Below are positions 6,419 to 52,300 of a stretch of DNA of 64,000 nt, in pieces. The DNA is from Psammoneis japonica. Taxonomy: Eukaryota. A program made the position numbers and the translations under genes. Location of the stretch: assembly GCA_008632985.1 (NCBI GenBank), contig QPGO01000112.1, positions 186,001-250,000 of the forward strand. The letters are read 5' to 3'. Within the stretch, counting starts at the first letter, position 1. Each line of letters starts with the position of its first letter. The notes beneath the pieces were generated by a model. That model did no database searches. It was given only the letters and a program-made list of their open reading frames with translations, and was not told the origin of the DNA.

Positions 6419-6442
6419 CTTGATATCAAGTATGCTCAATTT

Positions 6443-19481: not shown

Positions 19482-22400
19482 TGACAGGATTTGAACAGGA
19501 TTTAGATGCTCGCGAAATGTCGCGCGCTGTTTAGTTTGCCGTGCACAGTTTTGTGTGCTTCAGTTCCGCGCATTCGCGCGCGATGCAGTTTGCTTTTGAG
19601 CCACAAGGCTCACAAGAATGACAACAGCAGCCTGATTGCACCGACTTGCATGTCTTTCGGCTCCTGCAACGGTCTCTGAGCGGAGACTCATCTGCCATTT
19701 AGACAGCAGCAAGGAGTCATTGTTTGAATTCTTGCCATTTGCCTTCAATTTCTGTCAGATTGACAGTCTTGCTCATTGTCAACCCATTGAGCAACCGCCA
19801 TCATTGTTGTTGATTTACCAACGACGCTGTTTCAATTCTGCGTGGACCTCCGTGTGTGTTCTACATGCATCGGCAAGTCTGCGCACATCCAACACCAGGG
19901 CATCGGCAGGAAGTTAACGTCACCGTCAAGTCTCCTTGCCGCTGGACATCTGGATTGATTGCACCACCTTTGATCGCTGAAGACATGCATTCAACGGTCA
20001 TGTCCAAGTCCATCCTTGATCCTTGTCCCTTGATGTGCCCATTCATTGGTTGACGGTCAAGAACCCTGCACATTCAAGGATCCTTGTCGCTGAAGACATG
20101 TGTGCACACACATGTCTTCACGGCCAAGAACCTGTGCCCACTCTTTGGACTGCGGTTTTTCCACCACTCTGCAAGCACACCGAGTCCATTGCACCTGATC
20201 TGCCCCGGACTGCTGGTGCTCTGCAGTTCTGCTGGGTCCACGAGGACGACTGTGAGAGCAAGTGGCCGTGATTGCAGCCTGCGTTGGGGCGAGGGTGCTT
20301 TCCCGCGTTTGTTCATTCGTCCACAGCGCCTGACGCCTGCATCAACTGGCCAGCCTGATCGGGAAATCCAACCGATGCAAAATGAGAACGGTTCGGGGGT
20401 CTTGTCCACCTCTGGTCAGCTTGCCTGCAGGGGTTTACAACCCGCTGCTCCGCTTGCAAGCAACCCAAAGCGCCGCCAGCTGCGGGTTCGGACGTGCCGG
20501 CACAACTCTGCAGACCGGATGGGAAGTTTAGCACTTGACAACGAACGGGACAGCACAACCCAGCGACTTCTGATTTTAAGGCAGTTCGAGATTTCAAGTC
20601 AAGTCTGCTTCAAGTCAAGTCCATTCTCACCCAAGTTTCAAGTCCACCTTCGCTTCCCAACAAGAATTGCTTGTCCTGACTCCGCTTTTGTCTGCCATGG
20701 TTCTCACTCGTCAGCAACAAACCGATGGTTTCGAGCACGTTGTTGGAACCGTGCTTGCCCAAGGTGCTGGGAGCCCTCTTCGTTTGGCTTTGGCCCAAGA
20801 CGGCACGGACTCGCATCAAGAACTGTTCACGTTCATGCCGTCCCAAATCAACTCGCTTGAGTGCGACAACGGCACCAATGTGATCCCTTTGCCCCACGGT
20901 TATAAGAACATGTTGGCAGCCCTGGTCAGTCTGCACATTGTCAAAGCACACGAAGGTCTTGACGTTGCCAATGACTCCTCGTTGTTCACGCATGACGAGT
21001 TCCTTGCCCACCGCCTCAGCCCCGACTGCATGTCTTCTGTGTCCATCGGCAGCTCACCCCTCGCACCTCCGCATGTCACCAACCCGACCAAGGCACGCGA
21101 CCTGGTGCGAGACTTCAAGCGAGGCATCAAGCGTGATCCCACCGCTTTCACGGCTCTCAAATCCGACAAGCAGTGGCACACTTGGCACACCTCACTTGTG
21201 GCACAAGCCCGTGCCCAAGACGTCGAGTGCACTCTAGACTCGTTGTACAAACCGACCAGCCCCGAAGACAAACTGCTCTTTGCTGAACAGCAAAAGTGCA
21301 TGTTCGCCGTCTTCGAACGCATCCTTCTCACCGACAAGGGCAAGGCTCTCATCCGCGAAAATGTGGGGTCTTCTGACGCCCAGACCGTCTGCCGCGCCTT
21401 GTCCGAGTGTGCGCTCGCCTCCACCCGCGCATCTGTCGAGTCCTCCACCTTGCTCACGCACCTTGCCACCGCACATCTTGGTGATGGTGCTTGGAAAGGT
21501 CCGACCCACGGCTTCATCCTTCATTGGCAAGACCAGTTGCGCAAGTGCGATGCACTTGTCCCGGCCAGTGACCACTTCTCTGAAGGACAGAAGCGCGTCA
21601 TGCTTGAGAATGCCACGCACCCTGTCGAGGAACTCCGTGCTGTCAAGAACCAAGCTGATCAGCATCGCACGCAGAGTGGCAAGAGCCTCACATGTGACCA
21701 ATGCTGCGGCTTGCTCCTCTCCGTGGCAGCTCAATGCGACAGTGCGTTTCAACCCAAGACAACACCTCGAGCTCCCCAACGCGCCATGTGCGCACACGAC
21801 GTCTGCTCCGAGGAACCATCCGACGATGTGTTCCACGACATTGACAGCGACATTGACGTCCTTCAGGCCAATGCTGCCTGCACCCGTGGTCCCAGCCTCA
21901 CCGGTGACCAATGGAAACGTCTCCCTCCCGACCACCAACGGATTTGGGATTCGTTGCCCCATTCCTCCAAGGCGATCATCCTTGAGCATTCTCGTCCACC
22001 TCCCCGCAACCCGCGAGCCAGCAACTGCCATGAGTCCGTTATGGCCAACCTTCATGACCAACGCCTTGGGAGTGACGGTGATGTCAACTTGTCCAACACG
22101 ACTCCTGCTGACTCTGGTGACCCCGCTCCAAATGTGGGCACCACTTCGGATGATCCCATCCTGGCGCACCTCACCAAGCGCAAGCCACTGCCACCTGGTG
22201 ATCTGCAACGTCTGTTGTCTCCTAACCAAGCCCCCAATGCCAGTCGACCGGGGCCATCCGCCGCTCCCTCCACCCCGCCAGCTTCTGCCGATGACACAGA
22301 ACTCAACGGCCGCACTTGCCGTCGCGCCAATGACCACAATGTCATTTGCTCTGCCTCTGCTCATTGCTCCACATGCACTGGTGCTCTAGTCGATCGTGGG

Positions 22401-25071
22401 GCCAACGGCGGCATTGCTGGTGACGACGTTCGCGTCATTGCACGCACCTCTCGCCAAGTCGACGTTCAGGGCATTGACGACCATCAATTGGTGGACATCC
22501 CTGTTGTCACCGCTGGCGCCGTCATTGAGACCCAGCGTGGTCCCGTCATCGCCATCCTCCATCAGTGCGCGTGCACGGGAAAGGGCAAGACCATCCATTC
22601 CTGCGGCCAGCTTGAATGGCACAAACAGGATGTCCACGATCGCTCTGTCAAGGTGCCCAACGGCTTGCAACGCATTGCCACTCCTGATGGCTGTGTCATC
22701 CCCATTGACATCAAGGCCGGCCTGCCTTGTGTTGCCATGCGACCTTGCACTGACGCCGAATGGGACACCCTGCCCCATGTCATCCTCACCGGTGATGACA
22801 CATGGGATCCTTCCGTCCTCGATCACTCTGTCACTGATGGCGACCAGTGGTGCGACGCGATCTCTGACCTGCAGGACGATCCCACTGCCAACCCATTTGA
22901 CGAACACGGCAACTGCCGTCATCGTGTCGTTGTCAACGAGACCATCATGTCCGCTTCCTTGTCTGCCGATCACGCGTCCGCCCTCGATGATCACCTCATT
23001 CCAAATGACGACGTGTTCTACGAGTGTCATCCACACGCGATTGACCCCAAGGGCGACGACGTCCCGCCCCCGGAGCGCACTGTACAGCCCAAGGACCCCC
23101 CCTTCGAGTCTCTTCGGCCTCACTTTGGCTTCCTGCCTGCCGATGCGGTCCGTCGTGCTTTTGACTGCACCACGCAGTGCGCCCGCATGCCTGCCGGCAC
23201 ACACCTTAGGAAGGCCTGCAAATCACCCAACCCCGCCCTTAACGTGCACCGCCGCAACGAGCCTGTCGCCACTGACACCATTTGTGCCGACACCCCGGCT
23301 GTCGACTCTGGTTGCACCAGCGCCCAACTGTTTGTTGGCACCGAGTCTACCGTCACTGACGTCTGCAGCACCAAGACGGACAAAGAGTTTGTCAACACAC
23401 TCGAGGATCAGATCCGTGAGCGTGGTGCCCCATCCAAACTCATTGGCGACCGTGCTCAAGTTGAGATCAGCAACAAAGTGCTCGGGATCCTACGAGCCCT
23501 CTTCATCTCCAGCTGGCAAAGTGAGCCTCACCAGCAACAACAAAACTTTGCCGAGCGTCGACACCAGACCGTGAAGCGCATGGCAAACACTGTCATGGAT
23601 CATTTTGGTTTGCCCGCCCACACATGGCTGCTGGCGCTCATGTGTGTGTGCTTCATGCTCAACCATGCAGCGTCCCCACGTCTCCACTGGTGCACGCCCC
23701 TCGAGACTCTCACTGGCTCCACCCCGGACATCAGCCCATTGCTTTGCTTTCACTGGTGGGAACCCGTGTGCTTCCACCTCAATGACTCCGATTGGCCGTC
23801 CGAATCCCGTGAGTTGCGTGGACGCTTCGTTGGCATTGCTGAGCACGTCGGCCACCAGATGACCTTCAAGATTCTCTCTGACAAGACTCAGAAGATCCTC
23901 CACTGGTCCAACGTACACTCCGCTGCCACCGATCCTGCCGTTCGAAACCTGCATCTTGATCCTCCTGATGGGAGCCACCTGAACCCATCATCAAATCTCG
24001 CCATGACGACAACCCCGTCGATTCTCCTGATGGGAAGATCAGGACACCCAAGATGCCAGTTTTCGATCCGCAAGACATCATCGTACCTTCCTCATGCAGC
24101 CACAAGAGGACGGACAATGCCACAGAGCTCGCATCGTCAAGGCCGTCGAAGACCATGAATGGAAAGTGAACGGCAATCCCGAGCTTGCTAAGTTCGTCTG
24201 CTCTGTCAACAACGATGAATGCGAGGAAGTCCTTGCCTGCAACGACATCATGAATCACATGAGCAAGAAGACAAAGACACTGCTGTTTGGAAATTCCGAC
24301 GCATCGTGTCACACGAAGGACCTCTGAAGCCTCATGACCCAACCTGGAAAGGCTCAAGCTACAACATCATGCTTGAATGGGAAAGTGGGGAGATCACGTC
24401 CGAGCCTCTCGCCATCATTGCCAAGGATGACCCCGTCACCTGCGCCATCTATGCACGAGAGAACGGACTTCTCGACACGGATGGCTGGAAGCGGTTCCGC
24501 ACCATCGCGAGGCACCAAAAGAAGCCATTTCGCATGGCCAACCAAGCCAAGCTTCGCTCCTTCCGCACTGCACCTCGCCACAAGTGCGGATGCAAAGTTC
24601 CCCGGAACTGCAAACACGCCATGTCACTAGACGAGCGCAACGGCAACCGCAAATGGGGAGACGCAACTAATCTCGAGATGGCCAACTCGGGGAATACGAA
24701 GTCTTCCATGACTGCGGCCCTTCGAGTCTTCCACTCCTCCTGCGGGACACAAGAAGATCCGAGTGCACCTGGTGCACGACGTGAAACACGACGGTCGCCA
24801 CAAGGCACGACTCGTAGCCGATGGGCACCTCACGGACATGCCTGTCGACAGTGTCCACTTCGGAGCAGTCTCCCTCCGTGGCCTTCGGTTGATGATTTTC
24901 CTGGCCGAACTCAACGAGTTGGAGACATGGGCCACCGACATTGGCAATGCCTGTCTTGAAGCCACCACTGAGGAGAAGCTCTACATTGCAGCCGGACCCG
25001 GATTTGGCAAACTCCAAGGACACATCCTTGTCATCCACAAGGCCCTGCATGGGCTGCGCAGCTCCGGTCTC

Positions 25072-28000
25072 AGTCGAGATGCAGTCCCACAGCTGAGTGG
25101 GATGGACAAGACCTCGGAGGTTGGCAGCAATGTGAGTGGCGACAGAGGCAAACAGACGCTTGTTGAAAGTCGTTGTCCAGAAATTGTGACGAATGTCGTT
25201 GCTTCTGTTTGAATCGATTTTGTGATGAGCCAATTATTTTCGAAGAGAAAATCTGAGTCTGGGTTGCAGTCGTGAGATGTGACCAGAATGACGTTGAGTC
25301 GTGACTCTCCCTCTCAACCGAGAGAGCTCACCAGCCCACAAGAGCCTTTCCAGCCGCACGGAACGCATCGGTCCGTAGTCCCTTCGTGAACTGATCGGCC
25401 AGTTGCTCTAGAGTGCTGACAGGTTGGATGTCGATCTCCAATTGTTCGACTTTAGTCCTAAACCAGTGGTGCGGGGTGCCGATGTGTTTGGTTCGCGGAG
25501 ACAACTTGGGCGTGCGTGCGAACTTGAGGCACGCGGAGTTATCTTCGTACACAACGGACGCAGGCAGGACATTCTGCTCTACAGGCGAGTCATCGGTGCC
25601 TTGGGTTGCGAGCTCAAAAGCCTTGGAGTGAGTCGTGATGGGGTTTTGGTGGTCAGACTTTCCAAGTGCGTGGTGGTTGGGCTCCTTGAGAACTTCACGA
25701 GTGGGGATGAGATCGCGCATGGCTTGAGAAAGTGCGACATGTTCCGCTTCCATGGTCGACAATGCTGCAAGAGTCTGCAGCTTGGACACCCAGACAAGCG
25801 GGCAGCCGGCGCAGCAGACAAGGTGTCCAGTCCTGGACTTGACAGAAACTGGGTCTTGACCATCTTCCACACCAAATGACCCCGCGAAGTCAGAATCGAC
25901 GCAACAATCAACTCGATGATCTTGCGCAGGCTTGAGAATGAGACCTTCAGCAGCAGTTGCTTTGAGGTGTCGGAGCATCCGCTTCACTGCAGCAGCGTGG
26001 GACGCTCGGGGCGCAAACGAGAATCGAGCTGCTTGATGTGTGGCATGTGCAATGTCTGGCTGGCTGTTCGCTGCCAAGCACATCAACATTCCAACAACTG
26101 AGCGATAATCGCAGGGTTCATCAAAAGGCAGGCCGTCCGTGTTGGCACCAACAGCCGCAGGTAGAGCTGGAGTAGATGCTCCATTGCAATCCTGCATCTG
26201 TGCGGCACGCAGGACCTTGTCAATTAGACCGGGTTGAGTGAGTAGAAATCGACCCTCGGAGAGCTTTTCGATCTTGACACCGAGAAAGTTGCCGACTTCT
26301 CCTTCGTCTCTAAGTTCAAATGCGTGGCGATGTTCGTCGTCGGAGACTCCTAACTTGCGAATTTCGGCTTCTAGAGCTTCAGCTGAAGCTCCAGCAAAAA
26401 CGGTGTCGTCGACGTGCACCACACACATCATGCCCTCTTTGAAATACAAACAGGGATCTATGGCTGAAGGTGCCCATCCGCGCTTGGTTAAACCAGCTCG
26501 CAACTTCTCGCAGAAGCCCTTGGGAGACTGTTTTAGGCCGCACAGTCCTTTCAAAAGTTTGAGAACCATGTTGAGTCCCGACCTTGGCGCAAATCCCTTC
26601 GGCGGTGTTATGCAAACTTCTTCAGCGATGTCAGCTTGGCAAAAGGCTGTGGCACAGTCCACCTGTCATGCAGCCCATCCCTCCTTTAATGCCGCAGTGA
26701 GCATGAGTCGGATGCTGGACCATTGCACAACCGGCGCGCAGGTTTCGAAGCAGTCGACTCCTTCTTTCTGCAATCACCGCGGACGCAGTGTCGGGCCTTG
26801 TGCTTGAGAGGGGTTCCATCTGGGAGTCTCTTGAGCTTTGGTGCCCATGTGCCTGGAAGTGCATTCATGTGCAGCTGACGCTCGACTGCTTTCCAGGCTC
26901 GACGATGTGTGAGTGCGTTGACTTCAATTTTCATCGCCTTGATCCATTCGTTGGCGTCCGGACCTTTCAGAGCATTGTGTGACGAAGGCACATCAGGGTC
27001 CTTGGTTTTCTTGCTAGCTGCGCATGCTCGTGGATCGCCGATGTTGATGGCACCACTGTCCAAATCCATCTCGAGAGTCACCAGATGCGCTGGTTGAGCC
27101 TCGTGTCCGATCGGCAGCGGCATTTCCTCAACGGAGCTGAAGCAGACCTCATCTACAAACTTGGCAGAGTTGAACTGTCCCTTGGTTGACCGTGAAGACC
27201 GTCGCAGCCCTGGTGCTCCCTCTGGATTCGTCACAGGAGGTGTCTTGACTGGGGGAGGAGCTGTTGGTTCCGTCGGCGCTTCGGGTGGCGGAAGTCCGTT
27301 GCCATCTTGAGGTTCAGGTGGCTGAATTGGCGCAGAGTCCGCAGAGTCTGCAGGTTTTTGAGTCGCAGGTGGGACTGGTGGCGTTGGCTGCTGAGTCGCA
27401 GGTGCGACTCGATCGGTGACGTCGTCGCGAGAAATGGGTGAGTCCGGCACAGTGATCGATGGAGTGGGCTCAAAATGCCCGCGAATGCGTGTTGCTCTGG
27501 CCAGTTCTCGTTCTTTGCATTGACGCTCTGGAGGGGCAAGCCACTCATCGTGTAAATGAACTGCCTGATCCTTCTCCAGAGGGATGCACATCGATTGGTT
27601 GAGGCACAAGTGTTCCCAGTGATCAGGTGGATCCGTCTCCCTCTCGATTGATGGTGCGGCAGTGAAGAGATCGTCAAAGACCACATGATGCTGAGGTGCA
27701 ACACTTCCAGTTTGAAGATTGAGGACCAAAGGAACCTCACTGGAATGGATGGCACTGAGTCCCACGAACAAAGCGCGACAAGTGCGAGGCTCCCAACGCG
27801 GGAGCTTCTTCCCGGAAGCGAGGGTCGGGTCAAGTGCGTACGCTGGACATCCCCATGTGTGAATGTCGCGCAACCGATGTCTTGGCACTGTCGAACCGGT
27901 GAAAATGTCCGCTGGGCAATGTCCTTTGGAATTTGGGGTGACATTGTAGATGTGCGTGGCACAAGAAACTGCCATGGGCCACAGGGAGCTGTCAATCCCC

Positions 28001-30920
28001 CCCTTCCAGTGGATTGATGCATGAAGCAACATCGCTCTCGCCATGTTGGAGATGCTGCGGACACCCCGCTCTGCGACGCCGTTCTGATGATGGGCGTTGG
28101 TTCCACAAAAATGGAGACATTGTTCATGATCTCGTGTGTGTTGTACAAAAGCGTTGGCCTTGAAAGCGCCACTGTCGGTAAGAAATTCTTGGACGATGAC
28201 CCCGTGGTCCAAAGCATGTTTCTCAAACGCTTGCTTCGCGCGTGTCGTCTCAACAGCGGAGAAACCCAGTTGGTGCTCGACCTGGACATAGCCAGAGGCG
28301 TGGTCGACAAAGACACAACCGCCCTTGAATTGCTTGGACGTGGCTTTGCCATGAGAGTTGAAGGTGCGGCCTAAAAGGCGCGACTCAAGATGATCAACGC
28401 TGACAGCCTGACCCGGTCGAAGATGGTCAGCTCGAAGGGCCCCGTCGCGTTCAGGGACTGTCGACTTGTGAGTAGATCCAAGAGAGCGTCTGTGACCTTT
28501 AGCATGTTCGCATGCCTCGCATCTTGGGTGGTCACACTTCGCTGCGGACTTGAAATGGTTCGAAAGGAACGGAACTGCGCGGAGAAGTGATTGGACGCGA
28601 CCAAAGTTCAAATGGCCAAAACGGGCGTGCATTTCGAGAAGAAGCTTTTGGCCTGCCGTGAGGTTTTGATTCTCCTCGTTAAGGATCTGAAGGTTCACTT
28701 GAGGAGCGGCAGACACGCCCTTGGTCATCGACGCAACAGGCAAGTGGCTTGATGGATGACATGGCACGACCAACTTGCCTGTCCCGTCAACATGTAAACG
28801 GAAAGTGGTTTCATCGCCCTCACACTTCCCACGTACCCCCTTCTCTTCGTTGAAGAGGCGTTGAGGCGACAGCAGGCGCTGACGGGCTCCAGGGACGTAG
28901 CATGCCATGGTGTTCAGTTGGATGGTAGCCCCACTCGGCGTTGTGAACACCCACGCAACCGGACCGGTGCCCTGGATGGTGAGACCGTTGGCAATCCCAT
29001 TGATCTGTAAGGGTTTCTTGGGAACAGTCATGGGCCCCGTAAAATCATCTTTGTCGGGGGTGACAGCTAACGTGGCACCAGCATCCATGACGACCGTGAG
29101 AGCCTCGTCCGACAGACCGATGAGTGGGCTTGTGATTGTCCGGTGAGCAGTTGGATGGTGGAGGCATTGTAGACGACTGGTCCAACACTTGCTTCCTCCA
29201 ACAGTTCCACAGGATCTTGAAAATGGGCAGTGTCCACGATGTGATGCGGCAGACAGAGCTCGTCAAACCGGAAGAAATCCGGGCTGAAGTCCTCAAGAGC
29301 GTCAAAGAAATGCCTCTGGTCGTCGAGAGGTTCCAGTTCCTCACAGGTGTCAAAGAAGGCTGATTCGTCTATCGCATCAGACCGTTCAGCTACTTCTGGG
29401 CTCTCCCAGTGGGCCTTGAGACGAGTGCTCAGTGCGTGTGACGGATGGCGCGCGACAAACTCGGTGAGCACTTGCGTGCCTTTGATCCTGTGACATTCGA
29501 ACAGTGACCCCGTGTCCAACACTGTCCGGTCATCTAGCTCTTCCACAACATGGTAGACTTGAGAGCCAGCGGTCGAAAAACGACTTGGTGCGTTCGAGAA
29601 TGGATGCTCGGGCTGTTGACCGGCGTAAACTGCTGACCATGCCATCACTGCAATGGATGGGACCATCCAGGAGGCTGGAAACCCGTGCAAAGTTGGGAGT
29701 TTGCGCTGGCGGCGTAGAGCTCGAGGGACACATGGGATTGGAGCAAAGCAAAGATGTAGTGCCATTTCCCAAAACATGGCGGCGAGCCAGAGTGTGAACA
29801 GCTTGACTCGACCCAAGAGTGAGCGACGCGAAGTGGGCTCGTCTTCGACGTCCTCGTGACAATCATCCGCATCCAGGACCTCTGGATCGTAGAAATCGAA
29901 GCCACGATACGTAACACACGGAGGCAAGTCGCAGCATGCGTCTTCAAAGTGTACGTCGTGTTCAAGGATGAGATCTAACTTGGTGTCGTCTGACAGCATG
30001 TCCGTCAAATGTGCGGGAGCGTCAAAGAACTCATCTGGATGCTTGATGGAGTACAGCTTCGAGGCCGGAAACAACTCAATAGCCGGTGGTTCGTTTTCAA
30101 AGGTAGAGAAAGCGTCGGAGCATTCGTAGAAGTCATCGGCGTCTTCGGGAGTGACAGTCTCAACCACGATGGGAGACACGACTGGATCCACAACTGAGGT
30201 GAGTGCAGGTGGGCTCGTTTCGATGCAAACCACCTCAGTGCCAACGACTGTATCGCTCTCCCTCTCGGCCGAAGAAGCCGGAGCAACCACAATTGCAGCA
30301 GTGACAGGGGCGGAACAGAAATCCGGGTCGGCAACGGGATCCGCAGCCGCGCACCACATTCCTGTGAAAACCAACTCGTTGGGGTCGGATTCGTCTCCCT
30401 CTGGTGCCTTGGCAGTCTGAGCGGGCGGACCCATGGGCACGCCACCATCCGGATCAGCAACGGAAGACAAATTCCCGGCTGGGGTCTCCTTGGGAGGTTG
30501 CCTGCGGTCGTCGGCATGTTCCGCGGTAGAGTGCTTCTGGTGGATTCCAGGTTTGTTGGCACCCTTCGCCTTGCACGTGGCACACCACTTCCATTCCTTG
30601 CCATTCTTATCCTTCTTCGTTTCTCCGTCAAATTTAGCACTCCAGGCAGCGATGGGTCGCCTCTTCTTCTTGGAAGGGTCGTCTGCAGGCGGCGGATTGG
30701 GAGGAGGATCGTCGCGCGGCGGTTTGGCGTTGCACTTCGGACACGTCTTCTTGGTGCACCCCTCGAGACCGCAACCATGACAGTGCTTCGTCTTCCCAGG
30801 GGTTGTCCGCAGTCGAAAGATTACTCTCGGGTAGCTTGGCCACTAATGCAGGCCATTCCCCGTCCTTCATGAGTTCGTTGTGTTGCTCTTGAATCCACGC
30901 AATGATGCCGACCGGTCCGA
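25072..30920 (-). mobile_element. Ty1/copia element B, copy 1; 5'-truncated, nested in the RT of element A; 3' LTR 25072-25306
   Basis: Zinc knuckle, protease (MDAGA), integrase (HARFGH, HQNGVAER), RT (LCGLKQS, HVDD) and RNase H (DSDFAG, ADQFTK) on the minus strand; PPT gagagggag. Confidence 0.9.
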
Positions 30921-30922
30921 GC

Positions 30923-40016: not shown

Positions 40017-43000
40017 AGTCGACATGCAGTCCTGCAGCTGAGTGGGATGGACAAGACCTCGGAGGTTGGCAGCAATGTGAGTGGCAACAGAGGCAAACAG
40101 ACGCTTGTTGAAAGTCGTTGTCCAGAAATTGTGACGAATGTCGTTGCTTCTGTTTGAATCGATTTTGTGATGAGCCAATTATTTCGAAGAGAAAATCTGA
40201 GTCTGGGTTGCAGTCGTGAGATGCAACCAGAATGACGTTGAGTCGTGACTCTCCCTCTCAACCGAGAGAGCTCACCAGCCCACAAGAGCCTTTCTAGCCG
40301 CACGGAATGCATCGGTCCGTAGTCCCTTCGTGAACTGATCGGCTGGTTGCTCTAGAGTGCTGACAGGTTGGATGTCGATCTCCAATTGTTCGACTTTAGT
40401 CCTAAACCAGTGGTGCGGGGTGCCGATGTGTTTGGTTCGCGGAGACAACTTGGGCGTGCGTGCGAACTTGAGGCACGCGGAGTTATCTTCGTACACAACG
40501 GACGCAGGTGGGACATTCTGCTCTACAGGCAAGTCATCGGTGCCTTGGGTTGCGAGCTCAAAAGCCTTGGAGTGAGTCGTGATGGGGTTTTGGCGGTCAG
40601 ACTTTCCGAGTGCGTGGTGGTTGAGCTCCTTGAGAACTTCACGAGTGGGGATGAGATCGCGCATGGCTTGAGAAAGTGCGACATGTTCCGCTTCCATGGT
40701 CGACAATGCTGCAAGAGTCTGCAGCTTGGACACCCAGACAAGCGGGCAGCCGGCGCAGTGGACAAGGTGTCCAGTCCTGGACTTGACAGAAACTGGGTCT
40801 TGACCATCTTCCACACCAAATGACCCCGCGAAGTCAGAATCGACGCAACAATCAACTCGATGATCTTGCGCAGGCTTGAGAATGAGACCTTCAGCAGCAG
40901 TTGCTTTGAGGTGTCGGAGCATCCGCTTCACTGCAGCAGCGTGGGACGCTCGGGGCGCAAACGAGAATCGAGCTGCTTGATGTGTGGCATGTGCAATGTC
41001 TGGCCGGCTGTTCGCTGCCAAGCACATCAACATTCCAACAACTGAGCGACAATCGCAGGGTTCATCAAAAGGCAGGCCGTCCGTGTCGGCACCAACAGCT
41101 GCAGGTAGAGCTGGAGCAGATGCTCCATTGCAATCCTGCATCTGTGCGGCACGCAGGACCTTGTCAATTAGACCGGGTTGAGTGAGTAGAAATCGACCCT
41201 CGGAGAGCTTTTCGATCTTGACACCGAGAAAGTTGCCGACTTCTCCTTCGTCTCTAAGTTCAAATGCGTGGCGATGTTCGTCGTCGGAGACTCCTAACTT
41301 GCGAATTTCGGCTTCTAGAGCTTCAGCTGAAGCTCCAGCAAAAACGGTGTCGTCGACGTGCACCACACACATCATGCCCTCTTTGAAATACAAACAGGGA
41401 TCTATGGCTGAAGGTGCCCATCCGCGCTCGGTTAAACCAGCTCGTAACTTCTCGCAGAAGCCCTTGGGAGACTGTTTTAGGCCGCACAGTCCTTTCAAAA
41501 GTTTGAGAACCATGTTGAGTCCCGACCTTGGCGCAAATCCCTTCGGCGGTGTTGTGCAAACTTCCTCGGCGATGTCAGCTTGGCAAAAGGCTGTGGCACA
41601 GTCCACCTGTCGTGCAGTCCATCCCTCCTTTAATGCCGCAGTGAGCATGAGTCGGATGCTGGACCATTGCACAACCGGCGCGCAGGTTTCGAAGCAGTCG
41701 ACTCCTTCTTTCTGCAAATCACCGCGGACGCAGTGTCGGGCCTTGTGCTTGAGAGGGGTTCCACCTGGGAGTCTCTTGAGCTTTGGTGCCCATGTGCCTG
41801 GAAGTGCATTCATGTGCGGCTGACGCTCGACTGCTTTCCAGGCTTGACGATGTGTGAGTGCGTTGACTTCAATTTTCATCGCCTTGATCCATTCGTCGGC
41901 GTCCGGACCTTTCAGAGCATTGTGTGACGAAGGCACATCAGGGTCCTTGGTTTTCTTGCTAGCTGCGCATGCTCGTGGATCGCCGATGTTGATGGCGCCA
42001 CTGTCCAAATCCGTCTCGAGAGTCGCCAGATGCGCTGGTTGAGCCTCGTGTCCGATCGGCAGCGGCATTTCCTCAACGGAGCTGAAGCAGACCTCATCTA
42101 CAAACTTGGCAGAGTTGAACTGTCCCTTGGTTGACCGTGAAGACCGTCGCAGCCCTGGTGCTCCCTCTGGATTCGTCACAGGAGGTGTCTTGACTGGGGG
42201 AGGAGCTGTTGGTTCCGTCGGCGCTTCGGGTGGCGGAAGTCCGTTGCCATCTTGAGGTTCAGGTGGCTGAATTGGCACAGAGTCCGTAGAGTCTGTAGGA
42301 GTTTGAGTCGCAGGTGGGACTGGTGGCGTTGGCTGCTGAGTCGCAGGTGCGACTCGATCGGTGACGTCGTTGCGAGAAATGGGTGAATCCGGCACAGTGA
42401 TCGATGGAGTGGGCTCAAAATGCCCGCGAATGCGTGTTGCTCTGGCCAGTTCTCGTTCTTTACGTTGACGCTCTGGAGGGGTGAGCCACTCATCGTGTAA
42501 ATGAACTGCCTGATCCTTCTCCAGAGGGATGCACATCGATTGGTTGAGGCACAAGTGTTCCCAGTGATCAGGTGGATCCGTCTCCCTCTCGATTGATGGT
42601 GCGGCAGTGAAGAGATCGTCAAAGACCACATGATGCTGAGGTGCAACACTTCCAGTTTGAAGATTGAGGACCAAAGGAACCTCACTGGAATGGATGGCAC
42701 TGAGTCCCACGAACAAAGCGCGACGAGTGCGAGGCTCCCAATGCGGGAGCTTCTTCCCGGAAGCGAGGGTCGGGTCAAGTGCGTACGCTGGACATCCCCA
42801 TGTGTGAATGTCGCGCAACCGATGTCTTGGCACTGTCGAACCGGTGAAAATGTCCGCTGGGCAATGTCCTTTGGAATTTGGGGTGACATTGTAGATGTGC
42901 GTGGCACAAGAAACTGCCATGGGCCACAGGGAGCTGTCAATCCCCCCCTTCCAGTGGATTGATGCATGAAGCAACATCGCTCTCGCCATGTTGGAGATGC

Positions 43001-45890
43001 TGCGGACACCCCGCTCTGCGACGCCGTTCTGATGATGGGCGTTGGTTCCACAAAAACGGAGACGTTGTTCATGATCTCGTGTGTGTTGTGCAAAAGCGTT
43101 GGCCTTGAAAGCGCCACTGTCGGCAAGAAATTCTTGGACGATGACCCCGTGGTCCAAAGCATGTTTCTCAAACGCTTGCTTCGCGCGTGTCGTCTCAACA
43201 GCGGAGAAACCCAGTTGGTGCTCGACCTGGACATAGCCAGAGGCGTGGTCGACAAAGACACAACCGCCCTTGAATTGCTTGGACGTGGCTTTGCCACAAG
43301 AGTCGAAGGTGCGGCCCAAAAGGCGCGACTCAAAATGATCAACGCTGACAGCCTGACCCGGTCGAAGATGGTCAGCTCGAAGGGCCCCGTCGCGTTCAGG
43401 GACTGTCGACTTGTGAGTGGATCCAAGAGAGCATCTGTGACCTTTAGCATGTTCGCATGCCTCACATCTTGGGTGGTCACACTTCGCTGCAGACTTGAAA
43501 CGGTTCGAAAGGAACGGAACTGCGCGGAGAAGTGCTTGGACGCGACCAAAGTTCAAATGGCCAAAACGGGCGTGCATTTCGAGAAGAAGCTTTTGGCCTG
43601 CCGTGAGGTTTTGATTCTCCTCGTTGAGGATCTGAAGGTTCACTTGAGGAGCGGCAGATGCGCCCTTGGTCATCGACGCAACAGGCAAGTGGCTTGATGG
43701 ATGACATGGCACGACCAACTTGCCTGTCCCGTCAACATGTAAACGGAAAGTGGTTTCATCGCCCTCACACTTCCCACGCACCCCCTTCTCTTCGTTGAAG
43801 AGGCGTTGAGGCGACAGCAGGCGCTGACGGGCTCCAGGGACGTGGCGTGCCATGGTGTTCAGTTGGATGGCAGCCCCACTCGGCGTTGTGAACACCCACG
43901 CAACCGGACCGGTGCCCTGGATGGCAAGACCGTTGGCAATCCCATTGATCTGCAAGGGTTTCTTGGGAACAGTCATGGGCCCCGTAAAATCATCTTTGTC
44001 GGGGGTGACAGCTGACGTGGCACCAGCATCCATGACGACCGTGAGAGCCTCGTCCGACAGACCGATGAGTGCCTGCGGGTCGGATGCAAGGAGGTCGGCT
44101 TGTGATTGTCCGGTGAGTAGTTGGATGGTGGAGGCATTGTAGACGACTGGTCCAACACTTGCTTCCTCCAACAGTTCCACAGGATCTTGAAAATGGGCAG
44201 TGTCCACGACATGATGCGGCAGACAGAGCTCGTCAAACCGGAAGAAATCCGGGCTGAAGTCCTCAAGAGCATCAAAGAAATGCTTCTGGTCGTCGAGAGG
44301 TTCCAGTTCCTCACAGGTGTCAAAGAAGGCTGATTCGTCTATCGCATCAGACCGTTCAGCTGCTTCTGGGCTCTCCCAGTGGGCCTTGAGACGAGTGCTC
44401 AGTGCGTGTGACGGATGGCGCGCGACAAACTCGGTGAGTGCTTGCGTGCCTTTGATCCTGTGACATTCGAACAGTGACCCCGTATCCAACACTGTCCGGT
44501 CATCTAGCTCTTCCACAACATGGTAGACTTGAGAGCTGGCGGTCGAAAAACGACTTGGTACGTTCGAGAATGGATGCTCGGGCTGTTGACCGGTGTAAAC
44601 TGCTGACCATGCCATCACTGCAACGGATGGGACCATCCAGGAGGCTGGAAACCCGTGCAAAGTTGGGAGTTTGCACTGGCGGCGTAGAGCTCGAGGGACA
44701 CATGGGATCGGAGCAAAGCAAAGATGTAGTGCCGTTTCCCAAAACATGGCGGCGAGCCAGAGTGTGAATGGCTTGACTCAACCCAAGAGTGAGCGACGCG
44801 AAGTGGGCTCGTCTTCGACGTCCTCGTGACAATCATCCGCATCCAGGACCTCTGGATCGTAGAAATCGAAGCCACGATACGTAACACACGGAGGTAAGTC
44901 GTAGCATGCGTCTTCAAAGTGTACGTCGTGTTCAAGGATGAGATCTAACTTGGTGTCGTCTGACAGCACATCCGTCAAATGTGCGGGAGCGTCAAAGAAC
45001 TCATCTGGATGCTTGATGGAGCACAGCTTCGAGGCCGGAAACAACTCAATAGCCGGTGGTTCGTTTTCAAAGGTAGAGAAAGCGTCGGAGCATTCGCAGA
45101 AGTCATCGGCGTCTTCGGGAGTGACAGTCTCAACCACGATGGGAGACACGACTGGATCCACAACTGAGGTGAGCACAGGTGGGCTCGTTTCGATGCAAAC
45201 CACCTCAGTGCTAACGACTGTATTGCTCTCCCTCTCGGCCGAAGAAGCCGGAGCAACCACAATTGCAGCAGTGACAGGGGCGGAACAGAAATCCGGGTCG
45301 GTGACGGGATCCGTAGCCGCGCACCACATTCCCGTGAAAACCAACTCGTTGGGGTCGGATTCGTCTCCCTCTGGTGCCTTGGTGGTCTGAGCGGGCGGAC
45401 CCATGGGCACGCCACTGTCCGGATCAGCAACGGAAGACAAATTCCCGGCTGGGGTCTCCTTGGGAGGTTGCCTGCGGTCGTCGGCATGTTCCGCGGTAGA
45501 GTGCTTCTGGTGGATTCCAGGTTTGTCGGCACCCTTCGCCTTGCACGTGGCACACCACTTCCATTCCTTGCCATTCTTATCCTTCTTCGTTTCTCCGTCA
45601 AATTTAGCACGCCAGGCAGCGATGGGTCGCCTCTTCTTCTTGGAAGGGTCGTCTGCAGGCGGCGGATTGGGAGGAGGATCGTAGCGCGGCGGTTTGGCGT
45701 TGCACTTCGGACACGTCTTCTTGGTGTGCCCCTCGAGACCGCAACCACAACAGTGCTTCATCTTCCCAGGGTTGTCCGCAGTCGAAAGATTGCTCTCGGG
45801 TAGCTTGGCTGCTAATGCAGGCCATTCCCTGTCCTTCACGAGTTCGTTGTGCTGCTCTTGAATCCACGCAATGATGCCAACCGGTCCGAG
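40017..45890 (-). mobile_element. Ty1/copia element B, copy 2; 5'-truncated in gag; 3' LTR 40017-40250; 1491-aa ORF at 40272-44747
   Basis: CxxCxxxxHxxxxC knuckle (CCGCGLEGHTKKTC), then protease, integrase, RT and RNase H in copia order; PPT at 40251-40259. Confidence 0.92.
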
Positions 45891-45891
45891 T

Positions 45892-46451
45892 GAATGCTGT
45901 GCACCACCTGACGAGTGCGGGAGGTTCTCAACAACCCAAGAGGCAAAGAAATTACCACTCGGCTAATTGTTGAGTCCCTTCTCCGCACACACATTCAGGC
46001 ATGCGTTGTGCACAGCATCATCACACAGCATTTGTCCAACTCTCCCTCTCGTCGCAGGATGGGGCATCGCCTTGGGGCGCATCCGCACGGCGGACTTACA
46101 AATTTGACCATGCACTCCCTCTGATGGGCAGGATGGGCAGCGCCATGTGGCGCATCCGGCCAAGGGAGGAGTGGGTTCGAAGCCCAACCGCCCACCCCGG
46201 ATGGGGTTGGAAAGGGGCAGGCCGAGAAAGAAAAGGAGGCTTGGATTTGAGGCCGACTCGAACCAGCGACCTCAGGAAGCGTAAAGACTCATAACCACTC
46301 AGAATGCTGTGCACCACCTGACGAGCACGGGAGGTTCTCAACAACCCAAGAGGCAAAGAAATTGCCACTTGGCCAATTGTTGAGCCCCTTCTCTGCACAC
46401 ACATTCAGGCATGTGTTGTGCACAGCATCATCACACAGCATTTGTCCAACT
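45892..46451 (-). mobile_element. TRIM-like non-autonomous LTR element (~560 bp): 150-bp direct repeats at 45892-46041 and 46302-46451
   Basis: On the minus strand: repeat, GGTTATGAGTC (resembles the half-tRNA-iMet PBS of copia/Ty5), 260-bp non-coding interior, PPT gagagggag, repeat. Confidence 0.7.
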
Positions 46452-47965
46452 GTTCCGCTGGCACGAGCGCTTCGCCGACTGCCTGCGAGCTGAAGGCTTC
46501 TTCCCCTGCCACGCCGAACCTGACATTTGGGTGCACAGGAACGGCGACCACCATGAGCACATTGCCGTTTATGTGGATGACCTCGCCATTGCTGTGAAGG
46601 ACCCTCAATCTTTCGTCGACACTCTCACGGAAAAGTGCAAGTTCAAGCTCAAGGGTGCGGGACCCATTGAGTTCCATCTGGGTTGCGACTTTTCCCGGGA
46701 TCCCGACGGCACCTTGAGCCTGTCTCCGCGCAAGTACATCAAGCGCATGGTCGACAGCTGCACCCGACTGTTTGGGGAGAAACCCACCACCAACACCCTG
46801 TCACCTCTGGAGAAGGGTGACCACCCCGAACTGGACACTTCCGAACTGCTGGAGCCCGACGGCATTCACAAGTTCCAGTCCCTTGTTGGCTCACTCCAAT
46901 GGGCAGTGTCTCTTGGTCGAATTGACATCACCACGGCCGTCATGTCACTCTCCAGCTTCCGAGCTGCGCCCCGTCAAGGCCACTTGGATCGTGCCAAACG
47001 CGTCTGTGGGCACCTCTCCAAGATGCGACACAGCGCTCTCCACGTTCGCACGGAAGAGCCCGACTGTTCGGATCTCCCTGCTCCGGCCTGTGAATGGATG
47101 CATTCCGTGTGCGGCGAAGCAGAAGAGATGATCCCGAAGGACGCTCCACTGCCCCTTGGCAAGTTCGTCACTGCCACCCACTGCGTCGATGCAAACTTGT
47201 GCCATTGCATGCTCACCGGACGCTCTGTCATGGGAATGCTCCACTTCCTCAACAAATTCCCGGCTGATTGGTTCTCCAAGAAGCAAGCCACTGTGGAGAC
47301 TGCGACCTGCGGGTCTGAATTTGTTGCCGCAAGGACTTGTGTCGAGCAGATTGTCGACCTGCGCATCACCCTGCGCTGCCTCGGCGTCCCGACCCACAAT
47401 GTCAGTTGCATGTTCGGTGACAACAAGTCAGTTGTAGACAGTGCCACCATCCCGCACTCCAAGTTACACAAGCGACACACTGCACTGTTGTTCCACCGTG
47501 TGCGTGAGGCAATCACCTCTGGTTGCCTTGAGCTCCACTTCATCGAAGGCTCCCGCAACCCTGCTGACATTCTCAGCAAGCATTGGGGTTGCTTCCAAAT
47601 CTGGGACCTTCTCCGCCCCCTCATGTTCTGGAACTTCATTCCATCCAAAGTCGAATCTGTTTCTGTGACTCCTCAAGCAAACTGGGGAGTGACAGGATTT
47701 GAACAGGTTTCAGGTGCGCGCGAAATGTCGCACGCTGTTTAGCCCACCGCGCACAGTTTTGTGTGCTTTAGTTCCGCGCGTTTCTGCGCGATGCAGTTTG
47801 CTTTCGAGCCACAAGGCTCACAAGAATGACAACAGCAGCCCGATTGCACCGACTTGCACGTCTTTCGGCTCCTGTGACGGTCTCTGAGCGGAGACTCATC
47901 TGCCATTTAGACAGCAGCAAGGAGTCATTGTTTGAATTCTTGCCATTTGCCTTCAATTTCTGTCA

Positions 47966-49347
47966 AATGGGGTCACTGTGTTGCATCTCTTTCATCGCTG
48001 CGTGCTCACTGGCTCCCCTCGACCCATGTTGGCATGACTGCGTTGCTGCACTGCTGCTCAGCCAAGCCACAGATTGGCTCGTGTGCCTTCTTTTTGTGGA
48101 TCTTGGGTGCCCTCCCAAGAACAAGAGGTGCTTCCACTTTTCCCAAATGTGAGCAGCCACAGCTGCAATGTGCACTTTTCTTGCTGGGCACAAGAAGCGA
48201 AGAGGTCAGCTGGCCAGAAACAAAATTTTGCAGCTGCGCTCTCTCTGCAGAAGCCACAACAATTTTTCAAAAACTGACCAAGGTGCCCATTGTGGCCACA
48301 ACTCTGAACAACACTTGTCGTGACATGCTGGCTCAGTTTCAGCGACATGTCTGGCATTGCCAAAGTTGTCGTTTTTTGTTTTGTGGCTCAGCAGCTTGTT
48401 CAGAGCAGGCTCATTTGTTTGGAAAAGCTTCAGCTCAACTGCCCATTTCATTGCATTTTGTTGTTTTTTCTGCTGCATTTGTCTGGGCCTCTTTGTGGCA
48501 TTGGTGCCCCACACAATGCAGCTGCCAATCATCTGTCGTTTGCATGAGAACAATGGCGCACTTCCCTGTTGCAATCCACTGTGTCCTCATCATCAACAAC
48601 TTCCAAGGTTGTTGAAAAATGACTGTTGACCTTGGCACGCAAAATTGAATTCACTGAATGTCATGTGCATGGCTGAAAAAATCAATGCATCTGTCTGATT
48701 GTCCATCCGTCCAAATTTTGAATGCCACATGTGCGTGAAGAACCACTCTGACCGGAGGACCAACACATTGTGGCTGCACTCTTCACAGAAAAGCCACAAG
48801 GTTTCAAAACTAACCAAGGTGCCCAATGCAGCCAGGGGCTCTGAACAACATTTTGTCTTGACACACTGGCTCACTTTCAGCCACAAATCTGGCATTGCCA
48901 AAGTTCCTTGTCATTTTTTGGTTGGCGGTTGTTGACACTTTTCAAATGGCCATGGATTTGCAATGTTTTGTTTTGTCCTCTGTGACATGTTTCTGCTCAA
49001 CAAGAGTGCAACTTGTCAATGACTGAAATTTTCACATGCACCCCAATTGCACCCACAGATTTTCAACACACGTGAGCCCAGTTTCCATTCAACAACGGAT
49101 TCTGCATTTTGCTGAGAGTGAAAAGAGGCCACTCATTTCACATTCTTCCCCTCCGCCACTCCTTTTGCCACACTCCGTTTGCACCGCATCACCGTGCATT
49201 CACCGTGCATTCCGTGCTTCCACAAAAGAGAAGTGGGGCATGATGGCCGCCACAGGTGCCACTCTGTGCTGAAGTTGGAGTGTGGCATGCCATCTGGCAC
49301 ACTGGAAGCTGATTGCATTGCAAAACAAATGAAAATCTGTGAAATGG
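47966..49347. repeat. One complete ~1.38-kb tandem unit between element A copies 2 and 3
   Basis: Runs from TSD to TSD and contains an internal sub-repeat (accaaggtgccca...tctggcattgccaaagt) twice. Confidence 0.9.
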
Positions 49348-52300
49348 TGACAGGATTTGAACAGGATTTAGATGCTCGCGAAATGTCGCGCGCTGTTTAA
49401 TTTACCGCGCACAGTTTTGTGTGCTTTCACCAGCTGCGGGTTCGGACGTGCCGGCACAACTCTGCGGACCGGATGGGAAGTTTAGCACTTGACAACGAAC
49501 GGGACAGCACAACCCGGCGACTTCTGATTTTAAGGTAGTTCGAGATTTCAAGTCAAGTCCGCTTCAAGTCAAGTCCATTCTCACCCAAGTTTCAAGTCCA
49601 CCTTCGCTTCCCAACAAGAATTGCTTGTCCTGACACCGCTTTTGTCTGCCATGGTTCTCACTCGTCAGCAACAAACCGATGGTTTCGAGCACGTTGTTGG
49701 AACCGTGCTTGCCCAAGGTGCTGGGAGCCCTCTTCGTTTGGCTTTGGCCCAAGACGGCACGGACTCGCATCAAGAACTATTCACGTTCATGCCATCCCAA
49801 ATCGACTCGCTTGAGTGCGACAACGGCACCAATGTGATCCCTTTGCCCCGCGGTTATAAGAACATGTTAGCAGCCCTGGTTAGTCTGCACATTGTCAAAG
49901 CACACGAAGGTCTTGATGTTGCCAATGACTCCTCGTTGTTCACGCATGACGAGTTCCTTGCCCACCGCCTCAGCCCCGACTGCATGTCTTCTGTGTCCAT
50001 CGGCAGCTCACCCCTCGCACCTCCGCATGTCACCAACCCGACCAAGGCACGCGACCCGGTGCGAGACTTCAAGCGAGGCATCAAGCGTGATCCCACCGCT
50101 TTCACGGCTCTCAAATCCGACAAGCAGTGGCACACTTGGCACACCTCACTTGTGGCACAAGCCCGTGCCCAAGACGTCGAGTGCACTCTAGACTCGTTGT
50201 ACAAACCGACCAGCCCCGAAGACAAACTGCTCTTTGCTGAACAGCAAAAGTGCATGTTCGCCGTCTTCGAACGCATCCTTCTCACCGACAAGGGCAAGGC
50301 TCTCATCCGCGAAAATGTGGGGTCTTCTGATGCCCAGACCGTCTACCGCGCCTTGTCCGAGTGTGCGCTCGCCTCCACCCGCGCATCTGTCGAGTCCTCC
50401 ACCTTGCTCACGTGCCTTGCCACCGCACATCTTGGTGATGGTGCTTGGAAAGGTCTGACCCACGGCTTCATCCTTCATTGGCAAGACCAGTTGCGCAAGT
50501 GCGAGGCACTTGTCCTGGCCAGTGACCACTTCTCTGAAGGACAGAAGCGCATCATGCTCGAGAATGCCGCGCACCCTGTCGAGGAACTCCGTGCTGTCAA
50601 GAACCAAGCTGATCAGCATCGCACGCAGAGTGGCAAGAGCCTCACATGTGACCAATGCTGCGGCTTGCTCCTCTCCGTGGCAGCTCAATGCGACAGTGCA
50701 TTTCAACCCAAGACGACACCTCGAGCTCCCCGACGCGCCATGTGCGCACACGACGTCTGCTCCGAGGAACCATCCGACGATGTGTTCTACGACATTGACA
50801 GCGACATTGACGTCCTTCAGGCCAATGCTGCCTGCACCCGTGGTCCCAGCCTCACCGGTGACCAATGGAAACGTCTCCCTCCCGACCACCAACAGATTTG
50901 GGATTCGTTGCCCCATTCCTCCAAGGCGATCATCCTTGAGCATTCTCGTCCGCCTCCCCGCAACCCGCGAGCCAGCAACTGCCATGAGTCCGTTATGGCC
51001 AACCTTCATGACCAACGCCTTGGGAGTGACGGTGATGTCAACTTGTCCAACACGACTCCTGCTGACTCTGGTGACCCCGCTCCAAATGTGGGTGCCACTT
51101 CGGATGATCCCATCCTGGCGCACCTCACCAAGCGCAAGCCACTGCCACCTGGTGATCTGCAACATCTGTTGTCTCCTAACCAAGCCCCCAATGCCAGTCG
51201 ACCGGGGCCATCCGCCGCTCCCTCCACCCCGCCAGCTTCTGCCGATGACACAGAACTCAACGGCCGCACTTGCCGTCGTGCCAATGACCACAATGTCATT
51301 TGCTCTGCCTCTGCTCATTGCTCCACATGCACTGGTGCTCTAGTCGATCGTGGGGCCAACGGCGGCATTGCTGGTGACGACGTTCGCGTCATTGCACGCA
51401 CCTCTCGCCAAGTTGACGTTCAGGGCATTGACGACCATCAATTGGTGGACATCCCTGTTGTCACCGCTGGCGCCATCATTGAGACCCAGCGTGGTCCCAT
51501 CATCGCCATCCTCCATCAGTGCGCGTGCACGGGAAAGGGCAAGACCATCCATTCCTGCGGCCAGCTTGAATGGCACAAACAGGATGTCAACGATCGCTCT
51601 GTCAAGGTGCCCAACGGCTTGCAACGCATTGCCACTCCTGATGGCTGTGTCATCCCCATTGACATCAAGGCCGGCCTGCCTTGTGTTGCCATGTGACCTT
51701 ACACTGACGCCGAATGGGACACCCTGCCCCATGTCATCCTCACCGGTGATGACACATGGGATCCTTCCGTCCTCGATCACTCTGTCACTGATGACGACCA
51801 GTGGTGCGACGCGATCTCTGACCTGCAGGACGATCCCACTGCCAACCCATTTGACGAACACGGCAACTGCCGTCATCGTGTCGTTGTCAACGAGACCATC
51901 ATGTCCGCTTCCTTGTCTGCCGATCACGCGTCCGCCCTTGATGATCACCTCATTCCGAATGACGACGTGTTCTGCGAGTGTCATCTACACGCGATTGACC
52001 CCAAGGGCGACGACGTCCCGCCCCCGGAGCGCACTGTACAGCCCAAGGACCCCCCCTTCGAGTCTCTTCGGCCTCACTTTGGCTTCCTGCCTGCCAATGC
52101 AGTCCGTCGTGCTTTTGACTGCACCACGCAGTGCGCCCGCATGCCCACCGGTGCACACCTCAGGAAGGCCTGCAAATCACCCAACCCCGCCCTCAACGTG
52201 CACCGCCGCAACGAGCCTGTCGCCACTGACACCATTTGTGCCGACACCCCGGCCGTCGACTCTGGTTGCACCAGCGCCCAACTGTTTGTTGGCACCGAGT

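Follow-up and report, generated by a model that had tools for sequence, protein, structure and literature searches.

The window analysed here is a 64,000-nucleotide stretch of Psammoneis japonica DNA (contig QPGO01000112.1, positions 186,001 to 250,000 of the forward strand). Its repeat domains carry three copies (A1, A2 and A3) of a Ty1/copia-type retrotransposon with long terminal repeats (LTRs), element A, two copies (B1 and B2) of a second such element, B, and a duplicated fragment of a host Sir2-family gene. Our main finding is that DNA in these domains has very probably undergone A:T to G:C mutation directed at TpA dinucleotides, confined to the domain and acting after integration, together with a slower decay of CpG. 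We propose that the whole repeat domain would be under two context-specific processes, both acting on DNA once it has integrated. In the faster one, TpA, a palindrome, would become TpG or CpA through A:T to G:C change at its A on one or the other strand; in the slower one, CpG would decay to TpG or CpA, most simply by deamination of 5-methylcytosine. Because both processes end in TG or CA, sister copies can read TAC, TGC and CAC at one and the same Tyr codon. Comparison of the paralogous copies demonstrates, as far as sequence can carry it, what the ancestral state was, when, at the level of DNA, the changes arose, that both strands are used, where the affected domain ends and how the two rates compare. 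By analogy with the proposal made for Bigelowiella natans, the likeliest chemistry would be enzymatic, a deaminase directed to silenced chromatin turning adenine in DNA into hypoxanthine, and the process may have a role in genome defence.

Discordant tyrosine codons in element A

An initial annotation of the window had singled out two codons of element A that differ in all three copies, and both readings were reproduced. The codon at 21834–21836 in A1 is CAC, its counterpart at 36776–36778 in A2 is TGC and that at 50788–50790 in A3 is TAC; the second codon reads TGC at 22746–22748 (A1), CAC at 37688–37690 (A2) and TAC at 51700–51702 (A3), and the flanks are identical in each case. In A1 the two codons lie in frame as His and Cys at residues 419 and 723 of P0001, a stop-free frame of 1192 codons at 20580–24158 on the + strand. 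The KC/KH and TH/TC pairs that had been listed with them correspond to residues 322–323 and 293–294 of P0001, where the codons at 21546 and 21459 read TGC/CAC/TGC and CAC/CAC/TGC in A1/A2/A3, respectively. All four codons have Tyr as the consensus, as does the codon at 21390, which is TGC in A1 and TAC in both A2 and A3.

The ancestral state was assessed by aligning P0001, position by position, with 34 homologues. Residue 723, which lies within a conserved 'RPYTD.EW' stretch ('RPYTD' motif), is Tyr in 16 of 29 homologues, the others having Pro (7), Phe (3), His (2) or Met (1), and at residue 419 the homologues (n = 33) have Tyr (11), Phe (11) or other residues; Arg occurs at neither position. 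Tyr is the residue of at least 50% of homologues at 22 positions; there A1 carries Cys 17 times, His twice, Phe twice and Tyr once, and other residue classes are mostly kept (for example, Leu at 40/46 and Gly at 27/30 positions). The composition of P0001 is shifted in the same residues, with 0.3% Tyr, 3.4% Cys and 5.2% His, compared with homologue medians of 3.4%, 1.0% and 3.5%. Conversions that preceded the separation of the A copies number 14 TGY and 1 CAC. Judged from these alignments, the ancestor of the cited codons is TAC (Tyr) and not CGC. An ancestral CpG, which the initial annotation had itself raised as a counter-explanation, is contradicted by the lack of Arg among the homologues and by the TA kept in A3 at both codons. 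Low Tyr content was also observed elsewhere: among the 150 best A homologues from public genomes and metagenomes, six have less than 1.5% Tyr, with Cys or His raised in five of the six, and P0003, P0067, P0092, P0122 and P0141 (public metagenome or genome proteins homologous to element A) have 0–0.7% Tyr with raised Cys/His. The same signature thus exists in assemblies besides this one.

The three A segments that were aligned (20476–25070, 35418–40015 and 49430–54032; 4.6 kb each, MAFFT, 4603 columns) are about 98% identical, and 109 of their 115 variable columns are transitions. At ten dinucleotide sites one copy reads TG and another CA; the third copy has TA in three cases and CG in two, and the remaining five are two-against-one. 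By origin, at least five of the ten derive from TA, a TA origin is weakly supported at 23198, two derive from CpG and two are assigned to neither. Position 20914 reads TTG/TCA/TTA in A1/A2/A3, where homologues have Leu, Ile or Val. The proposal that TG/CA discordance goes back to TA therefore stands for the cited codons; it fails at 21997 (CA/TG/CG) and 23192 (TG/CG/CA), where a CG kept in one copy indicates a CpG origin. Discordance is not rare, with ten sites in the A copies and 27 between the 12.9-kb units described below. A three-state site was also observed in non-coding sequence of the LTRs, GCTT[CA/TA/TG]GTTCC (19564–19565, 47772–47773 and 55350–55351), which has CA in the 5′ LTRs, TA in the 3′ LTRs of A1 and A2, and TG in the 3′ LTR of A3.

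Multiplication of the array and the Sir2 control

The LTR of element A is 276 bp long (TGACAG...CTGTCA) and the element is bordered by a 5-bp target-site duplication (TSD), AATGG. All A copies have in common a left flank, ...GTGAAATGG running into TGACAGG, and a right flank, CTGTCA running into AATGGGGTCAC. Junctions with the same flank and TSD occur on the 5′ side at 19481, 34423, 49347 and 58445 and on the 3′ side before 32018, 47959, 55537 and 58715. Flanks and AATGG are identical throughout, solo LTR included, which bears out the single insertion point and TSD that the initial annotation had ascribed to the three A copies. Element B is nested at the identical base of A in both A1 and A2, and A3 is continuous across this point, 54032 running on to 54034. 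Two units of 12.9 kb with 97.9% identity, 18378–31247 and 33320–46214, hold A1 and A2. The shared flanks, TSD and nested B imply that the A copies multiplied as DNA and not by new reverse transcription, as had been suspected, and they argue equally against independent site-specific insertions. In the history that we propose, a single Ty1/copia-type insertion of A (TSD AATGG) would have been amplified as chromosomal DNA into a tandem array, B would have entered one A copy, and the B-bearing copy would then have been duplicated again. The tree ((A1,A2),A3), obtained from shared CpG changes, agrees with the inferred order of duplications. The 5′ and 3′ LTRs diverge by about 7.5%, compared with about 2% between copies, so through most of its existence A was present as one insertion only. 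Several rearrangements were observed within the array. The 5′ LTR of A3 is shortened to 81 bp (49348–49427), with a 915-bp deletion at the 5′ end of A3 relative to A1. Unit 1, at 31247, is short of about 865 bp present in unit 2 (46214–47079), comprising the end of B and 624 bp of A, with a CTCCGG microhomology, and it has an extra 1015-bp duplication (32305 to 33320) in the C repeat, the insertion target of A.

A fragment of the Sir2-family gene, duplicated into the repeat domain, provides a control from host DNA. Compared with the gene copy, 22 of the 31 differences in the duplicate are changes of TA to CA (16) or TG (6), and five are changes of CpG to TpG or CpA; TA is found in the duplicate alone at two sites only. 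TpA was thus lost at 22 of 35 sites and CpG at 5 of 60, and from gene copy to duplicate the totals go from 35 to 15 TpA and from 60 to 55 CpG. The reading frame of the duplicate has four Tyr to Cys changes, two Tyr to His changes and one new stop, and its non-coding upstream part is altered too. Since the fragment was never a retroelement and has the same spectrum of TA to CA/TG changes, the process acts on chromosomal DNA; and since only the copy within the domain is altered, its trigger is location and not duplication as such. Expressed per site, the loss in the duplicate amounts to −ln(13/35) = 0.99 (TpA) and −ln(55/60) = 0.087 (CpG). With a ratio of about 11 in this one pair, TpA would be lost roughly 11 times faster per site than CpG decays.

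Two mutation processes and the alternatives

By count, CpG decay is the larger source of differences among the A copies, accounting for at least 63 of the 115 variable columns. Singleton changes of CG to CA (36) and of CG to TG (27) are distributed across all three copies; 39 can be polarised, falling on the branches to A1 and A2, and the reverse pattern occurs at three sites only. In the comparison of the 12.9-kb units, CG stands against TG at 49 sites and against CA at 56, and is unchanged at 758. TA stands against CA at 20 sites and against TG at 15, and is unchanged at 83, and at 27 discordant sites CA in one unit faces TG in the other; the remainder are 17 other transitions and 15 transversions. 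Both products are found in each unit (26 CA and 16 TG in unit 1, 21 CA and 26 TG in unit 2), and a strand-run test for processive editing in these units revealed neither runs by strand nor clustering. Together with the altered Sir2 duplicate, these counts uphold the view of the initial annotation that the change happens in chromosomal DNA, recurs independently and uses both strands. B1 and B2 differ in the same manner, with 22 TG/CA-discordant sites and 30 sites at which TA faces TG or CA; the codon at 28353, for example, is CAT in one copy and TGT in the other, and Tyr in 21 of 36 homologues. At another codon of B, 28900–28902, we observed TGC in B1 and CGC in B2 where 29 of 30 homologues have Tyr. 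A former TA has there become CG, so that loss of TpA can create a new CpG in two steps.

The TpA process favours T-A-C. The base 3′ of the altered A is C in 28 of 43 polarised repeat events, as against 51 of 176 strand-orientations of unchanged TpA, and in the Sir2 duplicate the base after A is C in 9 and T in 8 of the 22 events. U-A-C is the context of TadA substrates, which the preference recalls. By itself it can explain the excess of TGY over CAC among the early conversions, and no RNA-level step is needed.

Within the window, the TpA process is confined to repeat domains. In 1-kb windows, the observed/expected ratio of TpA stays at 0.00–0.33 throughout the part of the window beyond 18.4 kb, and ratios for CpA/TpG reach 1.3–2.0 where TpA falls. 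The borders between the gene island and the TpA-depleted repeats are sharp on both sides, the left one lying near 3.3 kb. When the repeats are arranged in an apparent age series, the ratios for TpA and CpG are 0.1–0.3 and about 0.9 in B, 0.05–0.19 and about 0.9 in A, those given for the C repeat in Table 1, and 0.0–0.06 and 0.05–0.2 in the oldest repeats. TpA is thus lost ahead of CpG, as the rate ratio of about 11 predicts. To the left of the gene island, a second fully decayed repeat domain (1–3300) has ratios of 0.02–0.03 for TpA and 0.05–0.15 for CpG. We also observed long stop-free open reading frames (ORFs) in several frames on both strands of the repeats, such as 21234–22385(−) and 21238–22389(+). 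Loss of TpA removes TAA and TAG stops, and an open frame here is therefore no sign of an intact gene.

Two of the alternatives that we considered place the changes outside the TpA step or outside DNA. Had the codons originally been CGC (Arg), deamination of methyl-cytosine on either strand would give TGC or CAC, and TAC would be a double hit. CpG decay is indeed frequent here, and we compared the A copies with a simulation of CpG decay alone, fitted to the branch-specific counts (20000 runs). Discordant sites that keep a CG copy fit this simulation (1.7 expected; the two observed are 21997 and 23192). Sites without a CG copy do not: eight were observed against 0.22 expected, and 0 of 20000 runs reached eight. 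No homologue has Arg at the cited codons, where Tyr and Phe dominate; TAC demands that one copy be hit twice, the second time outside a CpG; and the loss of Tyr codons, like the change from TA in the Sir2 gene copy to CA or TG in the duplicate, is left without an account. The probability of ancestral CpG as the source of the cited codons is accordingly negligible. An ADAR-like A-to-I editing of transcripts, fixed by reverse transcription so that each copy is a separate retrotransposition, appears extremely unlikely. ADARs typically prefer a 5′ U/T neighbour (Mettrop et al., bioRxiv 10.64898/2026.01.13.699255 (2026), Discussion), and the sense bias in the common ancestor (14 TGY vs 1 CAC) could reflect editing before insertion, but the T-A-C preference predicts that bias equally. 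The single insertion site with its TSD and flanks, and the nested B common to A1 and A2, leave no new reverse transcription between the copies. TG and CA products both occur within one copy after duplication, and in the Sir2 fragment with its upstream DNA the spectrum is no different, 16 of the 22 changes giving CA on the + strand. The conclusion of the initial annotation that editing of an RNA intermediate cannot explain the pattern is thus supported by the shared insertion site and by DNA that does not belong to a retroelement.

Homology-triggered mutation resembling RIP (repeat-induced point mutation), where duplication itself induces changes in both copies, would be in keeping with the repeated nature of the mutated DNA and with B, the youngest element, being hit in both duplicates at 22 discordant sites. 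Its direction is nonetheless the opposite, TpA being destroyed rather than created; only the Sir2 copy inside the domain is mutated (22 changes vs at most 2); and the hypermutated viral region of Bigelowiella natans is single copy (10.64898/2026.01.13.699255). We consider such a process highly improbable. Errors of assembly or base-calling, allelic haplotypes placed in tandem, or patches of gene conversion from family members are very unlikely, although the window does hold a 469-N gap and a single N, and the family is highly repeated, with T at 21834 in nearly all other family contigs, so that donors with other states exist. Random errors would not produce a set of differences that is 95% transitions and restricted to CpG and TpA, and were the units alleles, the changes would still be at the DNA level. 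Gene conversion cannot make TA into CA or TG in a low-copy Sir2 fragment, and it only shifts the origin of TG and CA to other DNA copies.

Several points weigh against TpA-directed mutation of chromosomal DNA as we have described it. The evidence is a comparison of paralogues in one window, with no mutation caught in progress, and changes private to A3 are not polarisable by the three-copy tree alone. Ectopic gene conversion from the abundant A family may have affected the A copies; it cannot explain the Sir2 fragment. In public DNA contigs the family is represented by 6295 pieces at 90% likeness or more, these contigs coming from four DNA runs of one sample in one study that may be the assembly's own source, so that they do not independently confirm the variants. 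Their variation is mainly transitions (199/224 among the places listed, one run), and at position 21834 other family contigs have T in 56733 of 58594 summed depth. A further discrepancy concerns double hits, which in the sister units are about ten times as frequent as predicted for independent changes at equal rates (27 discordant, 35 single and 83 unchanged sites), and hot and cold TpA sites are thus required. Tetranucleotide context accounts for the excess only partly, and regional hot and cold zones were not seen in 500-bp bins. Since 22 of the 27 doubly hit discordant sites lie in B, the youngest element, the excess would fit a hot class of TpA that saturates fast after an insertion enters the domain, next to a resistant class.

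Known systems, significance and remaining features

TpA hypermutation of integrated viral DNA is described in the chlorarachniophyte B. natans by Mettrop et al. Of the 302 nuclear single-nucleotide mutations in mutation-accumulation lines, 231 lay within two integrated viral regions; A>G or T>C accounted for 230 of the 231, and each of these 230 affected a TpA. The rate came to about 6e-7 per site per generation. Reverse transcriptase and DDE domains were over-represented among TpA-poor coding sequences, and a DNA adenine deaminase resembling ADAT2/TadA was put forward as a hypothesis (10.64898/2026.01.13.699255). The present window has the same defining marks: a class of A:T to G:C changes found only at TpA, on both strands, regionally confined within the window and in chromosomal DNA. 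As in B. natans, A>G and T>C changes at TpA yield TpG and CpA according to strand, here alongside CpG decay, and the process works locally, on DNA that is foreign or silent, with the rest ordinary, TpA being depleted as CpA and TpG are gained. Mutation in that rhizarian was directly observed, in giant-virus and virophage inserts, whereas here it is deduced from paralogues, and the targets are retrotransposons with LTRs, a repeat of greater age and a fragment captured from a host gene. Depletion of TpA (0.00–0.33) is far deeper than the 0.45 given for the B. natans viral region. CpG decay runs alongside in our window and is not mentioned in the sections of the preprint on which we draw. The T-A-C preference, the rate relative to CpG and the sharp domain borders are additions of the present analysis.

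RIP of ascomycete fungi changes C to T mainly at CpA and so enriches TpA (PMC2621366). It resembles the present process in that context-specific transitions wreck repeated or foreign chromosomal DNA on both strands and leave a dinucleotide signature. Here, however, TpA is depleted and CpA/TpG raised, to the ratios given above, and the gene copy of Sir2 has at most 2 changes to the 22 of the in-domain copy, whereas RIP hits both duplicates. Decay of 5-methylcytosine at CpG in methylated transposons likewise yields TG and CA and recurs independently in sister copies, but it starts from CG and not TA, and it accounts for 2 of the 10 discordant sites and for neither cited codon. Deaminase editing in retroelement replication, by APOBEC on cDNA or ADAR on RNA (e.g. 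PMC4866542), also produces clustered transitions with a neighbour preference. Such editing precedes integration and marks a single strand; the changes in the window follow integration and duplication, fall on both strands and extend to DNA that is not a retroelement. Literature searches for TpA-targeted hypermutation in diatoms or in other repeats yielded nothing relevant beyond the B. natans preprint, and a term search of the main text of the study of diatom copia elements by Maumus et al. 2009 (PMC2806351) showed RIP, dinucleotides and point mutation to be unmentioned there.

To the extent that paralogues can reveal it, the window gives an independent record of DNA hypermutation targeted at TpA, from a host lineage and from kinds of target that are both new. 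Chromosomal A:T to G:C hypermutation at TpA was otherwise found described only once, for viral DNA in the passages of the B. natans preprint used here. The signature in a diatom-like host, in retrotransposons and in a host fragment points to a general domain-targeted defence or mutagenic process, not to a peculiarity of one alga. We tentatively suggest, as a possibility that falls somewhat short of probable, that diatoms have a DNA adenine-editing defence guided by chromatin domain, a mirror image of RIP and the same system as in Bigelowiella, old and widespread in the stramenopile-alveolate-rhizarian (SAR) group. If so, Tyr codons and TAA/TAG stops would be erased from any DNA in a silenced domain, host genes included, at a speed an order of magnitude above that of methyl-CpG decay, and TpA content could be a clock for residence in silent chromatin. 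Transposon proteins in such genomes lose Tyr, gain Cys and His and escape Pfam searches, P0001 being an example; the loss of TAA and TAG gives long spurious ORFs in all six frames; and LTR-divergence dating will give wrong ages if a uniform clock is assumed. For the enzyme, a testable handle is offered by the preference for T-A-C, by the mutation of both strands and by the borders of the domains.

The features of the window are collected in Table 1. Element A belongs with the Ty1/copia type in having TG...CA LTRs, a 5-bp TSD and, by way of P0004, an integrase upstream of an RVT_2-type reverse transcriptase. P0001 has 9940 homologues and no match in a Pfam search. P0004 is an intact homologue (44% identity over 1083 residues) with RVT_2 at residues 1367–1577, downstream of the aligned gag-protease-integrase part. 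A search for primer-binding site motifs to delimit element A gave no useful match. B has weak matches to gag_pre-integrs, Pol_BBD and SH3_retrovirus, below the gathering score, and RVT_2 is present in its homologues; its closest named relative is from the diatom Fragilaria crotonensis (51%).

Table 1. Positions of repeats and host genes in the window (ratios are observed/expected)
Feature	Positions	Strand	Remarks
Element A copy 1 (A1), Ty1/copia type	19482–25070	+	5′ LTR 19482–19757 (TGACAG...CTGTCA); internal part up to nested B
Element A copy 2 (A2)	34424–40015	+	5′ LTR 34424–34699; A resumes at 46456; 3′ LTR 47690–47965
Element A copy 3 (A3)	49348–55543	+	Without B; body 49430–54032, onward from 54034; 3′ LTR 55268–55543
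Element B copy 1 (B1), Ty1/copia type	25071–31247	−	Nested in A1
Element B copy 2 (B2)	40016–46455	−	Nested in A2
Solo LTR of element A	58446–58721	+	Flanks and TSD same as full copies
C repeat (insertion target of A), one copy	47966–49347	+	TpA 0.01–0.05, CpG 0.2–0.4
Further C repeat copies	18378–19481, 32018–33038, 33027–34423, 55544–56919, 58722–59824		
Host Sir2-family gene	16452–17552	−	Pfam SIR2, E 4e-52
Parental Sir2 fragment	16913–17908	−	5′ part of gene and upstream DNA; 35 TpA
Sir2 fragment duplicate	57256–58251	−	Inside repeat domain; 996 bp, no gaps, 31 differences
Gene island	3300–17908		TpA 0.44–0.94, CpG about 1; Nrap (7154–10967, +), weak HSF-type ORF, Sir2

Among named hits, the Nrap ORF is best matched by the diatom Seminavis robusta (37% identity, 93% of the query covered), and oomycetes come next at 24–26%. 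Together with the Fragilaria match of B, this makes a diatom, or at least an ochrophyte, the likely host on sequence similarity. A dinoflagellate reading, with hydroxymethyl-uracil at TpA, was tried and rejected: the spliced-leader motif had 0 matches at up to 2 mismatches, and the host genes are diatom-like. The 469-N gap (17909–18377) falls exactly between the region upstream of Sir2 and the first C repeat. Judged against 58252–59001, the sequence missing there probably comprises, in about 750 bp, the remainder of a C end, a solo LTR and the first part of a C copy. A tandem array at 62060–63011 (period 196 bp, 4.9 copies, 72% matches) belongs to the zone of the repeats in which decay is greatest, where the ratios are 0.00–0.06 for TpA and 0.07–0.2 for CpG.

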